The notes beneath the pieces are model-generated. The model worked only from the letters and a program-made list of their open reading frames with translations, was not told the DNA's origin and made no database searches. Shown here piece after piece: positions 40,611 to 53,004 of a stretch of 64,000 nt of DNA. Position 1 is the stretch's first letter; each line of letters opens with the position of its first letter. The position numbers and the translations under genes were made by a program. The stretch comes from Candidatus Vogelbacteria bacterium RIFOXYD1_FULL_44_32. GTDB taxonomy: Bacteria; Patescibacteriota; Minisyncoccia; Phycocordibacterales; XYD1-FULL-46-19. The DNA is taken from contig MHTJ01000003.1 of the NCBI GenBank assembly GCA_001823065.1, positions 253,283-317,282 of the forward strand. Reading direction: 5' to 3'.

Positions 40611-40651
40611 TAGAATTTTTTAGGTTAGCATATTAAACCTTAAACTATTTG

Positions 40652-40723
40652 TGACCCTACAGAGAATCGAACTCTGATTTAAACCTTGAGAAGGCCTTGT
40701 CCTAACCGTTAGACGATAGGGCC
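40652..40723 (-). tRNA. tRNA-Glu (anticodon CUC)
   Basis: Cloverleaf folded by hand: acceptor GGCCCTA/TAGGGTC, D-arm GTCT-AACGGTTA-GGAC, anticodon stem AGGCC/GGTTT with loop TTCTCAA, T-arm CAGAG-TTCGATT-CTCTG, discriminator A. CCA is not encoded. Confidence 0.85.
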
Positions 40724-40863: not shown

Positions 40864-41046
40864 ATGCGCCAAAGATCAGACTTAGAGCTCTCCGCCGAGA
40901 GTGGAGAGTTCCGGCCGTTCATGACCGCCGAGGAATACTACGACTTTCAGGACAGGTTTCAAAAACAGGTTGGCCCCGAGCTCGACCGCCACGCTGAAGC
41001 CAGGCAAGCCAGTGAGAAAGTGGCGAGAGAACATTATGTCCACTAA
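40864..41046 (+). CDS. hypothetical 60-aa acidic protein whose 3' end is duplicated about 760 bp downstream
   Basis: Strong RBS AAAGGAGG. GC-rich. Confidence 0.5.
   Translation: MRQRSDLELSAESGEFRPFMTAEEYYDFQDRFQKQVGPELDRHAEARQASEKVAREHYVH
40974..41039 (+). repeat. direct repeat copy 1 (66 bp; also the 3' coding end of the 60-aa ORF)
   Basis: 63/66 identical to 41738-41803. Confidence 0.85.
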
Positions 41047-41125: not shown

Positions 41126-41677
41126 TTAGATTAGTTTAGTTTCTAAAAATTTAACGATATGACTAACAAGCAAATAATAATAGTTTGCAATAATTGTCGA
41201 AATAGCTAAAACGCTGAAAATTATAGTCGAGACTGATAGAAATCCATATTTTTGAGCAAAAAAATAAATAACTAGGGCATATCCTGCACAGACAACCAAA
41301 GATATCGCAATCATTTTATGTTTTGTCTTAATAATCAAATCGGCCCCAAATCGTTTATACCACCATTTTTCTACAAAATAAACTATCAAGGTGATAAATA
41401 AGTAAGCATACCAAAAAAAATTTTCTAAATGATAAGTTCTTTGATACTCACCATCAGCAATTGAGAATCCTTGAATTAAAAAATTAAGAATGTTTATAAG
41501 GAAGTCACCAGAATTTACCAAGACAAGCGATATTAAAGCTCCAAATCCTAAGAAAATTGATACGACATTTAATGTGTAGACAAAACTAAATTGACTGGCC
41601 TTAAATAGAAGTAACAATTCTCGCCAAATCATTCTGACAAGATCGGGTTTTTTGTTCACATCTGGAACGATGGACAT
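41126..41677 (-). CDS. hypothetical polytopic membrane protein, AT-rich (about 32% GC), bracketed by the 66-bp direct repeats
   Basis: 183 aa with about 5 TM helices. Composition differs sharply from its GC-rich flanks. Confidence 0.55.
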   Translation of the reverse strand: MSIVPDVNKKPDLVRMIWRELLLLFKASQFSFVYTLNVVSIFLGFGALISLVLVNSGDFLINILNFLIQGFSIADGEYQRTYHLENFFWYAYLFITLIVYFVEKWWYKRFGADLIIKTKHKMIAISLVVCAGYALVIYFFAQKYGFLSVSTIIFSVLAISTIIANYYYLLVSHIVKFLETKLI

Positions 41678-41737: not shown

Positions 41738-41810
41738 CCCCGAGCTCGACCGCCACGCTGAAGCCAGGCAAGCCAGTGAGAAAGCGGCGAGGGATCATTA
41801 TGTGTCCTGA
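41738..41810 (+). repeat. direct repeat copy 2 (66 bp) and a remnant 3' gene fragment (encodes PELDRHAEARQASEKAARDHYVS*) with its own terminator at 41822-41850
   Basis: Three mismatches against copy 1. Reads in frame to a TGA. Confidence 0.8.
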
Positions 41811-49547: not shown

Positions 49548-49651
49548 TGTAAATCACCTCCTTTCAGTTTTTCTATTTAAATTACTACAACAAAAAAATA
49601 CTCACGTCAAGAGTTTTTAATTGGGAACTATATACTTAATTACCCTAGGGA

Positions 49652-49840
49652 TTAATATGACCTATCAGGGCTACCAACAACTTCTCTGGCATCCAGGTAC
49701 TGATTACATTCATATTCAGAAAAACCATAACAAGTTCCTCCTTCGTCATATAAACCAGGTTCTTGGCGAATAAACATTCCATAGATTACGGCTCCAATTA
49801 AAAGCGCTAGCGCTAATAAAAGTCCTAATCCGTCTTTCAT
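49652..49840 (-). CDS. IS passenger: 62-aa membrane peptide with a Cys-containing tail (GGTCYGFSEYECNQY)
   Basis: Its ATG overlaps the stop of the upstream 45-aa ORF (ATGA), and its stop lies next to the left IR. Confidence 0.45.
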   Translation of the reverse strand: MKDGLGLLLALALLIGAVIYGMFIRQEPGLYDEGGTCYGFSEYECNQYLDAREVVGSPDRSY

Positions 49841-49974
49841 TTTTTCTTGGACTTAACTTTTAATGTTTTCTTATCCTTATACCCAGAACCAGCAATAGCC
49901 CCTAAGACTTGGTCAAAGGAGGCTGGTACTGGTTCGTGTTTCTTTGGTTTTCGTCCCCTAGTTTCTTTTTTCAT
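49837..49974 (-). CDS. IS passenger: 45-aa highly basic peptide
   Basis: MKKETRGRKPKKHEPVPASFDQVLGAIAGSGYKDKKTLKVKSKKK. Overlaps the end of the 170-aa ORF and is coupled to the next ORF by ATGA. Below the ORF-track cutoff. Confidence 0.4.
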   Translation of the reverse strand: MKKETRGRKPKKHEPVPASFDQVLGAIAGSGYKDKKTLKVKSKKK

Positions 49975-50470
49975 CAGGTTTATCTAAGTCTTCTGGCTTA
50001 AAGTTGTATTTCTCTAATAAAATATCTCTGAAATAAATACCCCCTATCCTACGCATTGTTTCAATACTCCAACCATACAAGAAAGAACTTTGCTTTATTT
50101 TTTCGTTGAAATCTCCAAAATCCACAGAGTCGAATAATTTAAAAGCACATTCTTGAATGTTGTATTGATTTTGTATATCATTTTTTGTCTCACATTCCAT
50201 AAGTAGTTTTCCTTTATTTTTGTCTATCCAGTCTTTTAGTCCACTTTCTTCTAATGCTTTAATCCCAGTTGGTTTTAATGCAATGGGAGAAGCGTTAGCA
50301 AAAGCATCATTCATTCTTCCTTCAAGTTTTGTAATACTTTCTTTAATCCAAGTTATCGAAGTTTCTATAGCAGAAAAACGACTGCCTGATTTCCACGCAA
50401 TAACAATGAGAGCACCCATTATGCCCAAAAAATAAATCCAGTCTATTTGTATTACAAGAGGCTCAGTCAT
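49958..50470 (-). CDS. IS passenger: 170-aa protein with an N-terminal TM helix, no recognisable family
   Basis: Lies 20 nt downstream of the transposase stop on the same strand. Confidence 0.55.
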   Translation of the reverse strand: MTEPLVIQIDWIYFLGIMGALIVIAWKSGSRFSAIETSITWIKESITKLEGRMNDAFANASPIALKPTGIKALEESGLKDWIDKNKGKLLMECETKNDIQNQYNIQECAFKLFDSVDFGDFNEKIKQSSFLYGWSIETMRRIGGIYFRDILLEKYNFKPEDLDKPDEKRN

Positions 50471-50490
50471 AAATATATTATAACAGATAA

Positions 50491-51375
50491 CTAAGCAGTT
50501 AATTGTTTATATAATAATTTATCACTTTTTGCAATTTTTAGTGTCACTAGGTCGAATTTCTCGGCTAGACTATCTTGACGGTTATTGAAGCGAAAGGTTA
50601 TTTCATCAATGTAGCGCTGTAAGTGCTTTTTACTCATTGAGTGATAGGTACCGTGATAATTACGCTTAAACAAAGCCCAGAAGCTCTCGATTGAGTTGGT
50701 GTGGACATTGCCACGGACATACTGCTTGCGACTGTGTTTAATTGAATCGTGCTTAAAGCCAATCCGAACTAGTTTACGATAAACACCAGCGTCATCGGTC
50801 ATTAGATAGGCTTTAGGATTAACATTTTTTGTTACCGCATTAAGAACGGTGTGTGTCTGACGGTCTGGGATTTGGAAAGCTCGAAGTTTACCGCCTCGCT
50901 CTGTCATTCCCATAACAGCCGACTTTTTTGAGAAGCCGTGTTTGCGATTATGCTTTCCACCTAGATAGGTTTCGTCAATTTCTACAGTACCAATCAGTTT
51001 ACCTTTATTTTGCTTTAGAGCTTCACGAATACGCATATCCATAAACCAAGCGGTCTTTTGGGTTACGCCGACTTGCTCGGATAAGTAAATTGAAGAAACT
51101 CCCTTTTTAGAAGTTGTCAGAAGATAAATGGCAATAAACCATTTTTGCATCGGGATTTTGCTTTCACCAAAGAGGGTGCCTGTCTTAACAGTGAAGTCTC
51201 GTTTACAGCTATCACAACGAAAGCGTTTACCGTCTTTGAAACGGAAAATCTTATTGTGCTTACAGTGAGGGCAATAGTCCCCACCAGCAAAGCGCACATC
51301 CTCAAAGTGCTTTCGACAGACTTCCTCGTTGTGGAAGTGGGATATAAATTCGGCTAAGGTCTTAAAGTTTGTCAT
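50491..51375 (-). CDS. IS1595-family (ISXO2-like) DDE transposase
   Basis: 294 aa. N-terminal zinc ribbon CPHCKHNKIFRF...FRCDSCKRDF, then IPMQKWFIAIYLLTTSKKGVSSIYLSEQVGVTQKTAWFMDMRIREA and the DDE core (TVEIDETYLGGK...). Confidence 0.92.
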   Translation of the reverse strand: MTNFKTLAEFISHFHNEEVCRKHFEDVRFAGGDYCPHCKHNKIFRFKDGKRFRCDSCKRDFTVKTGTLFGESKIPMQKWFIAIYLLTTSKKGVSSIYLSEQVGVTQKTAWFMDMRIREALKQNKGKLIGTVEIDETYLGGKHNRKHGFSKKSAVMGMTERGGKLRAFQIPDRQTHTVLNAVTKNVNPKAYLMTDDAGVYRKLVRIGFKHDSIKHSRKQYVRGNVHTNSIESFWALFKRNYHGTYHSMSKKHLQRYIDEITFRFNNRQDSLAEKFDLVTLKIAKSDKLLYKQLTA

Positions 51376-51814
51376 ATTTATAGCTTATACCTATTCGATA
51401 GGGTTGTCAAGTTCCTTAAATAAATAGGGGTAGGTTGACAGCTTTTCTAGATTTGGTATTATTTACGGTAGCCTTTCACAATAAGTGGGACTGGTACTCC
51501 CCAATAAGAAGCAAACCAAAGACAGAAACCTGTCTCAAGTGTGGCGTGGGTATCTAAAAGTACCATACGCCTAGTGCGTATTCCCGAAAGGGTTTGCTCA
51601 CCTACGTCACACTTGGAACGGGTTTTTTCTGTAAACGAAAACACCCCCGTGAGGGGGCGGTAAGGTGACTGGAAGCCGGAAACTATCAAAATGGGGATAA
51701 GGGAGAGACAGACTCCCAAAACTTGTACAAGGTCCCAAGTCCTACTGCAGTAGGGCGAACTAAAGCTTCGAAGCGTGTCACTTTAATTCCTCCTCCTTGG
51801 GGGTGTTTTTGTAA

Positions 51815-51900
51815 GCGCCGATGACGAAAATGGTATCCGTCCTCGTTCTGTAAACGAGGGTTCCTCCCAGAACTTACGGGTTCGAATCCCGTTCGACGCA
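51815..51900 (+). tRNA. class II tRNA-like element (long variable arm), possibly a pseudo-tRNA, inside the IS
   Basis: Canonical T-arm ACGGG-TTCGAAT-CCCGT. Acceptor GCGCCGA/TCGACGC has one C-A mismatch. 3-bp D-stem with an 11-nt D-loop as in tRNA-Leu/Ser/Tyr. 17-nt variable arm. The anticodon loop TCTGTAA has C at position 33, so identity is unclear. Confidence 0.3.
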
Positions 51901-52085
51901 CAGAGTATTGACGAAAAGCGTCATCTGTATCCTAGCAGGATATGGGGACTTTGTCAATATTCAAAGTATAACACTTGGGGAGTTGTCCACGCCAACATTT
52001 TTATCAATTTTTCTGTTGATAAGGTGTACAGGGGCTATAATGGCAGCTTTTTATTATGGTAGGCGTAGTATGTTATAGTTAAGAA

Positions 52086-52244
52086 ATGACAATTATACCC
52101 TATATTATATTGGCAGTTTTGCTTTTTGGTTTGTTTAATGCCTACAGAGATTTTAAGAGTCAAATCGGATGGCTACATAGAAGGTTGGAGAAATTGGAGA
52201 AGAAAGTTGGTATTAGTGAGAAGGAAACTCAAGATTTACTCTAG
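52086..52244 (+). CDS. IS-internal small membrane peptide (52 aa)
   Basis: MTIIPYIILAVLLFGLFNAY... N-terminal TM helix and a charged C-terminus. Confidence 0.35.
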   Translation: MTIIPYIILAVLLFGLFNAYRDFKSQIGWLHRRLEKLEKKVGISEKETQDLL

Positions 52245-52293
52245 GGTAACGGATATAAATTTTAGAAAACATTAAAAGGTATAAAAATAAAAA

Positions 52294-52458
52294 ATGACAT
52301 TAATAATTATATTAGCTTTGGCTGTAATAATCTTTGGCCTTTTTGTTATAAGTAAGCAGTTAGGTGATACTTATAAATTACTTGACGGAAAGTTTAATAA
52401 TAATAAAGACGAGTCAGAAATTGTTGGTAAAAAGCATAAAATTGATTTAGAAGCCTAG
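52294..52458 (+). CDS. IS-internal small membrane peptide (54 aa), paralogous in architecture to 52086-52244
   Basis: MTLIIILALAVIIFGLFVIS... Its stop lies inside the right terminal repeat. Confidence 0.35.
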   Translation: MTLIIILALAVIIFGLFVISKQLGDTYKLLDGKFNNNKDESEIVGKKHKIDLEA

Positions 52459-52595
52459 GGTAATTAAGTATATAGTTCCCTTTTAATTTGTATTTTTCCC
52501 AACTTAGAGAGCTTCCTTCCTTTCCGACCACTGTAAAGGGATAGTAAAAATCAAGGGGTGAATAAACAGGCCGGTGGTCAATGATATTTTTTCTA

Positions 52596-52991
52596 CTAAT
52601 ATTTAGCCACCTTAGATTTTAGGTTAAACTGAAATATTATCTCAAATAAAGATAAAGCTATGGGCAGAATAATGTATGGCATCCATAATATATAATATAC
52701 AAAATCAGTTAAAAGTAGATAAATAAGCCAAATTAAATCAATAATAAATAAAATGTTCAATAAATAAGGCACTAGAGCGATATTTAATTTTTTAAAAATA
52801 CATATTGATATGTAAATTCTATTTGCAAACAAAAGAATAAAAACACCTACCCACAAGAAAAAGCGTAGTGGTACCGAATTTATATTAGCAAAACTACTAA
52901 TAAATAAAAATAAAAAAGAAAAATATAAAAAAATGACAAAATAAGCAAGATTAGAAATTATAAGATAATCTTTATTTATTATATTTATCAT
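52596..52991 (-). CDS. hypothetical polytopic membrane protein in an extremely AT-rich (about 22% GC) block
   Basis: 131 aa, very hydrophobic (Ile/Leu/Phe-rich). Lies between the IS and lysS. Confidence 0.4.
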   Translation of the reverse strand: MINIINKDYLIISNLAYFVIFLYFSFLFLFISSFANINSVPLRFFLWVGVFILLFANRIYISICIFKKLNIALVPYLLNILFIIDLIWLIYLLLTDFVYYILWMPYIILPIALSLFEIIFQFNLKSKVAKY

Positions 52992-53004
52992 AAAAATTTA
53001 TTTT

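Follow-up and report, generated by a model that had tools for sequence, protein, structure and literature searches.

Overlapping small genes and an unusual tRNA gene in a group of IS1595-family transposons, analysed from an element of Candidatus Vogelbacteria

Layout of the element and its relatives

The window analysed in this study is the whole stretch of 64,000 nucleotides (nt) at positions 253,283 to 317,282 of contig MHTJ01000003.1 of Candidatus Vogelbacteria bacterium RIFOXYD1_FULL_44_32. It contains an insertion sequence (IS) of the IS1595 family in which the transposase gene is followed, on the minus strand, by three small overlapping genes, termed p170, p45 and p62 here. An earlier note on this DNA had regarded the three as passengers of the mobile element and had compared them, as one translationally coupled set, to addiction or exclusion modules. 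The boundaries of the element, the transposase and the three genes are listed below (positions in the window; aa, amino acids).

49615-49622 (unstranded): target-site duplication TTTTAATT, 8 bp, copy beside the right inverted repeat; it directly abuts the terminal repeat
49623-49649 (unstranded): right terminal inverted repeat (IRR), GGGAACTATATACTTAATTACCCTAGG, complementary to 52454-52480 at 27 of 27 positions
49652-49840 (minus): p62, small membrane protein with an N-terminal transmembrane (TM) helix and a tail with two conserved Cys; its ATG overlaps the p45 stop as ATGA
49837-49974 (minus): p45, small basic protein, the core second gene; motif ETRGRKxKxHxP...F..VL..I..S.Y
49958-50470 (minus): p170, with an N-terminal TM anchor, a coiled coil and a predicted all-alpha C-terminal domain; motif RRIGGIYFRD...PEDLDKP
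50471-50490 (minus): 20-nt leader of the p170 insertion, containing TGTTATAAT, an extended -10-like sequence, 6 nt before the ATG
50491-51375 (minus): IS1595-family DDE transposase with an N-terminal zinc ribbon, 294 aa, identified with Pfam and NCBIfam
52454-52480 (unstranded): left terminal inverted repeat (IRL), complementary to the IRR at 49623-49649 at 27 of 27 positions
52481-52488 (unstranded): target-site duplication TTTTAATT, 8 bp, copy beside the IRL

A repeat search over the whole window revealed a 33-nt inverted repeat (49617-49649 versus 52454-52486), which resolves into perfect 27-bp terminal inverted repeats with the direct repeat TTTTAATT flanking them on both sides. An 8-bp target duplication is a hallmark of IS1595 elements, and together with the perfect 27-bp repeats it therefore places the element at 49623-52480 (2,858 bp). 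The transposase matched DDE_Tnp_IS1595 (PF12762, 6e-43 for the full profile), Zn_ribbon_IS1595 (PF12760, 3e-10) and the NCBIfam IS1595 model (NF033547, 5.9e-56). The element thus has the DDE transposase with zinc ribbon, the terminal inverted repeats and the 8-bp duplication of the family, and it is a transporter IS (tIS), with p170, p62 and two further small genes, p52 and p54, lying inside its inverted repeats. Its G+C content is 38%, versus 44% in the rest of the window, and the identical arrangement was found in two independent assemblies (L001 and L002).

The layout of the open reading frames (ORFs) is the one given in the earlier note: on the minus strand the transposase stop is followed, after a gap of 20 nt, by ORFs of 170, 45 and 62 aa, of which the first two overlap by 17 nt and the last two by ATGA. 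Its placement of these genes on a mobile element also holds, as they lie inside the terminal inverted repeats and the target duplication. The number of Lys and Arg residues in p45 had been put at 12; counted from the translation it is 15.

A metagenome scan with the window transposase yielded 44 related loci, and the same 27-nt terminal repeat, with at most seven mismatches, was present in about 30 related loci. Ten further distinct complete elements carry perfect 8-bp duplications, each of a different sequence. Three more elements were found prospectively via p45 homologues alone, all three of them complete and with their own 8-bp duplications, which brings the further distinct elements with perfect duplications to 13. 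The related elements measure 2.3-3.5 kb, and the target duplications of the group are mostly AT-rich. Two distant IS1595 elements discussed below (L003 and L071) also have an 8-bp target duplication.

The cargo of the related elements consists mostly of defence genes. It includes a STAND/AAA ATPase (PADLOC candidate defence family PDC-S59), a Schlafen-AlbA_2/HATPase_c_4 protein, a DUF5343 protein (PADLOC candidate defence family PDC-M34A), an EcoRI-like restriction-modification (R-M) pair, and a Dam methylase with a PD-(D/E)XK nuclease. Taken together, these elements form a large undescribed set of IS1595 transposons in the candidate phyla radiation (CPR) and in other uncultured bacteria.

Distribution and origin of p45, p170 and p62

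In 30 loci, with transposases sharing 53-81% identity with that of the window, tblastn located a p45 homologue immediately behind the transposase gene. All 19 distinct relatives retain an intact ORF with its start codon, which usually overlaps the transposase stop through an ATGA or TAATG junction. The mean ratio of nonsynonymous to synonymous differences (pN/pS) is 0.33, with pN below pS in all 171 pairs compared, versus ratios of 0.48-1.5 in the other frames; the codon-position entropy is 51 at third positions and 25 and 20 at the others. Because it is conserved after the transposase and is under purifying selection, p45 is a gene; it is the IS group's own conserved accessory gene and not a passenger. 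A profile search of the protein database returned at least 222 p45 clusters, nearly all of 41-56 aa and none annotated. A Dam-type methylase of the R-M clade (L040-L043) begins with the N-terminal motif of p45, which takes up its first ~30 residues and is about 41% identical at the protein level. In L041 and L043, the two elements of that clade that are complete, a PD-(D/E)XK nuclease gene comes after the methylase.

That p45 might not be a gene had been the first suspicion, as the DNA of its 3' end is matched by intergenic DNA at the opposite end of the element; this was overturned by the conservation and the pN/pS values. A related alternative is that the region behind the transposase gene owes its conservation to a DNA or RNA function, such as subterminal transposase-binding sites or a regulatory element, with the 45-aa ORF being incidental. 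This region does lie in the transposase-distal part, a common place for binding sites in IS elements, part of the p45 tail is kept in the non-coding duplicate at the other end, and the antisense frame also has pN below pS (ratio 0.48), with antisense ORFs in some copies. The lowest pN/pS nevertheless belongs to the sense frame, variation is concentrated at its third positions, and the antisense signal is the mirror expected of it. The ORF with its start is kept in all 19 relatives even where the DNA is too diverged for blastn, and the motif persists in the methylase N-terminus of the R-M clade. This alternative is therefore considered extremely improbable.

In the ancestral layout the p45 ATG would overlap or abut the transposase stop, so that the two genes would be translated as a coupled pair. 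The sequence of p45 starts with a basic part that contains RGR(K)P and ends in a tail rich in Lys, with a short helix (FDEVLGAIA) between them; in the AlphaFold2 model the basic N-terminus is extended, and there are two short helices. The AT-hook-like RGR(K)P, the helix, the Lys-rich tail and the mostly AT-rich target duplications suggest that p45 may be a small protein that binds nucleic acid and assists or regulates transposition into AT-rich targets.

The history of p170 is a different one. In an alignment against L021, L032 and L036, about 517 extra bases, comprising p170 and its 20-nt leader, are positioned exactly between the transposase stop and the p45 ATG. p170 is a passenger, an inserted cassette. 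This cassette of about 517 bp would have entered exactly at the transposase-p45 junction, and the native tail of p170 would now read into the start of p45.

Homologues of p170 (59 clusters, 37-65% identity) occur in Paceibacterota, Saccharibacteria and a few other groups. They are situated after secDF, between the genes for RNase R and cysS, or beside a serine recombinase with R-M genes; both p45 and p62 are absent from all p170 homologue loci, that is, from 12 genome loci and from 8 loci, in four gene contexts, of database homologues. One homologue lies inside L003, a complete distant IS1595 element with a transposase 34% identical to that of the window and the duplication GAGTTATC, and another adjoins an IS1595 transposase in L005, an element whose left end was not found. 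A distant member of the family occupies another cargo slot of the sister element L019 (hhalign, 96.7%). Besides that in the window, at least three further captures of the p170 family by IS1595 elements have thus taken place, and the family may be seen as a stand-alone gene of CPR variable regions which such elements would have picked up repeatedly.

No match to p170 was obtained in Pfam, PADLOC, PHROGs or NCBIfam, and a sequence profile search of the PDB gave weak coiled-coil noise only. The AlphaFold2 model shows an all-alpha C-terminal domain with a predicted local distance difference test (pLDDT) of 73-94; on this model the domain could represent a new fold. The positive residues after the TM helix suggest a cytoplasmic location of the domain. 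By analogy, p170 might provide a single-gene, membrane-associated defence or exclusion function, for which the defence-type cargo of the sister elements is the sole indication.

A less adventurous explanation would be that p170 is an ordinary CPR host membrane protein with a housekeeping role in the envelope, picked up by chance and devoid of any defence or exclusion function. The conserved-looking neighbourhoods after secDF and between RNase R and cysS agree with this, as does the lack of a defence-model match. The distribution of p170 is patchy, though, with 59 clusters only; its neighbours vary between loci, one homologue stands beside the serine recombinase with R-M genes, and three kinds of IS1595 element (that of the window, L019, and L003/L005) have captured it independently. 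We therefore hold the housekeeping explanation to be rather unlikely.

For p62, a single homologue (P0083) was found among 1.84 billion representative proteins, with 61% identity and an E-value of 3.5e-15. It keeps the TM helix and both Cys, and its locus is without IS features and without p45 or p170. In L023, L024, L034, L036 and L084, p45 is followed by small membrane proteins which are unrelated, and a stop/start overlap between p45 and the small membrane ORF was seen at the junctions checked, those of L023, L024 and L036. The complete elements L019, L022, L030 and L038 have no membrane peptide after p45 and a tRNA gene there instead. p62 would accordingly occupy a variable slot behind p45, which in relatives is filled by small membrane proteins of unrelated kinds. 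The other end of the element contains a diverged counterpart of this region, with the following features.

52086-52244 (plus): p52, small protein with a TM helix and a coiled coil; ORF in DNA of 28-31% G+C
52251-52293 (plus): remnant of the p45 3' end (GYKF*KTLK...); inverted repeat 49854-49884 / 52251-52281, 81%
52294-52458 (plus): p54, diverged p62 paralogue by alignment with p62; its stop codon lies inside the IRL

The last ~235 bp of the IRR end, with the p45 tail, p62 and the terminal repeat, are duplicated here in inverted orientation. In a pairwise BLASTP comparison p54 and p62 gave an E-value of 0.006, and the N-terminus of p52 resembles that of p54. The whole IRR end would have been copied in inverted orientation to the other end, where its ORF would have diverged into p54.

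The recurrence of p45 followed by a small TM protein (in the window and in L023, L024, L034, L036 and L084), with overlapping stop and start, raises the question whether these two form a stabilising pair, in which the basic protein restrains a membrane-damaging peptide and p170 is an unrelated insertion. The membrane peptides are, however, unrelated to each other, four complete elements have none after p45, the p62 homologue exists without p45, and p45 is far better conserved than any partner. Such a pair is quite unlikely.

With respect to the three genes as a set, p170, p45 and p62 were together in no other locus examined. Among the 44 loci related by transposase, none has a BLAST-detectable p170 or any p62, and 30 have p45, so the same trio beside other IS1595 transposases, which had been proposed as a place to look, was not encountered. 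Each ORF is a real gene by itself, as shown by the 59 homologues of p170, the intact p45 in 19 of 19 relatives and the one homologue of p62. Co-inheritance of partners across lineages, as in toxin-antitoxin systems, was not observed for p170, p45 and p62, nor does one of them belong to a known toxin, antitoxin or defence family: searches of Pfam, PADLOC, PHROGs and NCBIfam gave none of the three a match to such a model.

These results indicate that the three ORFs are probably three unrelated genes in the transposase-distal half of one IS1595 tIS and not a functional module. Their overlaps are inherited from the layout of transposase, p45 and small ORF, with one cassette insertion added, and it is through these tight overlaps that three unrelated genes looked like a single-purpose operon. 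The opposite view, that the three are coupled in translation and travel with the IS as a single addiction, toxin-antitoxin or exclusion module, can point to overlaps that are real (17 nt and ATGA), to the defence genes on sister elements, and to a combination of membrane protein, very basic peptide and small hydrophobic peptide that resembles some toxin-antitoxin or exclusion systems. It is largely refuted by the distribution, the trio being found together neither in the 44 transposase-related loci nor in the p170 homologue loci nor in the p62 homologue locus; p170 is moreover a recent insertion into a pre-existing transposase-p45 junction, and toxin-antitoxin or defence profile matches are missing. 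We regard it as very unlikely.

Of the claims in the earlier note, tight stop/start overlap proved to be a conserved feature of the IS group. The assignment of all three genes as passengers stands for p170 and p62 and fails for p45, the group's conserved second gene. The note had also said that its module would be refuted by lack of conservation of the ORFs in related IS copies, which is what was found for p170 and p62 as partners of the IS and is overturned for p45, or by a lack of purifying selection at the codon level, which the pN/pS of 0.33 contradicts for p45.

Several observations weigh against the reading of separate genes with the roles suggested above. p170 is without a fold or profile match; Foldseek searches with it against the PDB and BFVD gave nothing below E = 0.49. 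Several p170 homologues stand among housekeeping genes, which fits a host membrane protein equally well, and the evidence for a defence role is one of association only. The putative promoter in the p170 leader is a consensus match only. The Pfam AT-hook model did not match p45, most members of which have RGRKP. Finally, a real translational coupling of p170, p45 and p62, with a secondarily acquired interaction, is possible.

For the trio the result is thus a correction, which at the same time exposes an undescribed IS1595 group with at least 222 p45 variants. p45 lends itself to study as a candidate for a new cofactor or regulator of transposition, and the cargo slots, which sample defence genes, offer a route to new ones, including the p170 family with its possibly new fold.

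The tRNA(UGU) gene and its surroundings

On the plus strand, on the other side of the transposase gene, the element of the window carries a tRNA gene, preceded by a structured stretch and a predicted promoter:

51435-51462 (plus): near-consensus sigma-70-type promoter (TTGACA, 16-nt spacer, TG, TATTAT), facing the structured RNA and the tRNA
51436-51814 (plus): G+C-rich non-coding stretch of ~380 nt with a strong fold on the tRNA strand (minimum free energy -139.4 kcal/mol)
51815-51901 (plus): class II tRNA (long variable arm) of 87 nt with anticodon UGU, A73 and a leucine-type D-arm; ARAGORN, and 38.5 bits with the Rfam tRNA model

A tRNA(UGU) was present inside the inverted repeats of all 14 complete clade elements. 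The loci with this tRNA are the window, L015, L017, L019, L022-L024, L027, L028, L030-L039, L081, L084 and L085. Neither its side relative to the transposase nor its strand is fixed; the called lengths are 83-92 nt, and both complete elements of the R-M clade (L041 and L043) lack it. In an alignment of 14 distinct sequences, 98.6% of the cells are paired, compensatory changes are found at 17 of 20 pairs and the anticodon UGU is invariant; the pairing and covariation values were reached by none of 500 shuffles. Both a 7-bp acceptor stem and a 5-bp T stem are supported by covariation. The variable region is 16-24 nt long by count, and 10 of the 14 tRNAs, when folded as single sequences, form a hairpin in the variable arm; A73 is present in all 14.

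Co-divergence of the tRNA with the transposase was considered and rejected. The two divergences correlate weakly (Spearman 0.23), and the elements L015 and L017 have 98% identical transposases with tRNAs that are only 67% identical, lie at different positions and are accompanied by different cargo. The elements are therefore mosaics which exchange modules.

The body and the anticodon of this tRNA belong to different amino acids. The D-arm is identical to that of E. coli tRNA-Leu at 22 of 23 positions, and the best phage matches are tRNA-Leu. With a model of the tRNA family, phage tRNA-Leu scored 46-59 bits, tRNA-Ser 27-31 bits and ordinary tRNA-Thr 45-53 bits, and tRNA-Tyr gave no match. The body agrees with tRNA-Leu in its variable arm, A73 and D-arm/D-loop; a leucine anticodon (NAG or YAA) is lacking. 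The identity set of E. coli threonyl-tRNA synthetase consists of the anticodon NGU with G35 and U36, and of the pairs G1-C72 and C2-G71. All of this is found in the clade tRNAs, with UGU invariant, 1-72 as G-C in 11 of 14 and 2-71 as C-G in 14 of 14, although both pairs are also common in tRNA-Leu. The short variable loop of a class I tRNA-Thr is absent; ordinary phage tRNA-Thr(UGU) genes, as in L070 and L080, measure 73-76 nt.

A reassignment of ACA to leucine was rejected, as ACA in the transposases is used at positions where Thr is conserved (38 of 177 codons) and at none where Leu is. The ACA share of the Thr codons is 29% in element genes versus 18% in flanking host genes, and 36% versus 16% in the window. 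A role in codon supply, with decoding as threonine, is favoured by the use of ACA at conserved Thr positions and by its being commoner in element genes.

Comparable mismatched tRNAs are carried by two distant IS1595 elements. The p170-bearing element L003 (4661-7321) encodes a serine-type class II tRNA of 89 nt with the arginine anticodon ACG and discriminator G73. L071 (140-4003) is an IS1595 transporter IS of 3,864 bp with the duplication AAAAAGTC and a leucine-type tRNA(UGU); its flanking DNA has 66% G+C, the contig is listed as viral in IMG/VR and the transposase is 28% identical to that of the window. L003 also carries two small TM peptides, one with a Cys-containing tail, and the cargo of L071 comprises a dCTP-deaminase-like gene, a GIY-YIG-like gene and a DUF6471 gene. 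tRNA-like genes of leucine type, 112-128 nt long, were also noticed on IMG/VR contigs (L073, 3933-4044; L075, 1225-1351; L076, 3544-3671; L077, 4512-4637; L079, 3826-3949); they have ~32-44 extra nt in the region of the anticodon arm and are not called by ARAGORN.

The leucyl- and seryl-tRNA synthetases (LeuRS and SerRS) ignore the anticodon (PMC11028032). Since these enzymes are anticodon-blind, the tRNAs would insert Leu at ACA/ACG and Ser at CGN codons. Mistranslation is favoured by this property together with the recurrence, on IS1595 elements, of two body types that are read without the anticodon. We tentatively propose, as a possibility that we would not yet call probable, that IS1595 transposons spread identity-mismatched tRNAs, either as mobile, selected mistranslators or as body-swapped decoders that escape a tRNA-targeting toxin, and that these tRNAs serve the element in conflicts with host or phage, side by side with its defence-gene cargo. 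If charged according to their body, they would make the elements natural vectors of deliberate mistranslation; if charged with threonine, this would be the first class II tRNA-Thr known to us, as we know of no other. An obligatory tRNA of the clade whose body and anticodon are those of different amino acids is the most novel feature of these elements, and one that would surprise specialists.

The predicted promoter at 51435-51462 matches the hexamers at 11 of 12 positions and has the TG extension, which makes it the best site in the region, as a consensus match only. The fold of 51436-51814 has a z-score of -5.8 on the plus strand versus -2.4 on the minus strand. For this stretch no Rfam family was found at the gathering threshold or at E <= 1, and no similar DNA is present in any related locus.

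In five sister elements (L015, L019, L034, L036 and L038) the position directly 5' of the tRNA, on the same strand, holds the gene for a coiled-coil protein of 122-155 aa, and gene and tRNA keep this order whichever way the pair faces relative to the transposase. By eye, without support from a model, the C-terminal region of these proteins looks winged-helix-like; two members tested had no Pfam match. That the structured stretch of the window is a decayed copy of this coiled-coil/winged-helix-like gene was ruled out. Outside two different elements, at a distance of 0.8-2.6 kb, tRNA-Ile genes with the uncommon anticodon UAU were observed (L018, 7069-7142, and L024, 5777-5849; also L025 and L026).

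Elsewhere in the window, two regions may also be of foreign origin. Just outside the element, the stretch at 52489-53004 (23-31% G+C) encodes a multi-TM protein of 131 aa (52596-52991, minus strand), which is without a family match; this A+T-rich stretch may be separate foreign DNA. Two 66-nt direct repeats (40974-41039 and 41738-41803), 95% identical and 764 bp apart, bracket a multi-TM ORF of 183 aa (41126-41677, minus strand) at about 250 bp from a tRNA-Glu gene (40651-40723), and the region they enclose may be an integrated cassette.

Comparison with known systems

The core of an AT-hook is R-G-R-P flanked by basic residues. Near its N-terminus p45 has an invariant RGRK(P/S)K in a basic context, which is a resemblance only. 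Unlike in the AT-hook, the core of p45 is usually RGRKP and not RGRP; the canonical RGRP is found only in L034.

To our knowledge, neither p45 nor the tRNA has been described for the IS1595 family. Literature searches likewise returned no description of p45 or of tRNA cargo for this family, of a class II tRNA-Thr or of the present association of transposon and tRNA. Transporter IS are a recognised category of the family (Siguier, Gagnevin and Chandler 2009, cited in PMC3129680). The present group resembles them in its DDE transposase with zinc ribbon, its inverted repeats with 8-bp duplications and the passenger genes inside. It differs from known IS1595 tIS in the conserved second gene coupled to the transposase, in the conserved tRNA gene, and in a repeat consensus of its own, GGGAACTATATAC...TACCCTAG.

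Phage-encoded tRNAs compensate for differences in codon usage between phage and host. The present case is similar in that a mobile element carries a tRNA for a codon used more by the element than by the host. Unlike in phages, the carrier is a transposon of 2.3-3.9 kb, a single tRNA species is present and the body type is the wrong one for threonine.

A further resemblance is to allo-tRNAs and related irregular tRNAs encoded near transposable elements or toxin-antitoxin loci (Mukai et al. 2017, PMC5389517; reviewed in PMC7609411). These share with the clade tRNAs a long variable arm, an anticodon unfit for the body and a location near mobile elements; the body, not the anticodon, determines how they are aminoacylated. 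In allo-tRNAs the acceptor/T arms are 8/4 or 9/3 and the bodies are of serine or selenocysteine-like type, whereas the clade tRNA has a normal 7/5 cloverleaf with a leucine-type D-arm and A73, and it is a constant, covarying part of a defined DDE transposon and not its occasional neighbour.

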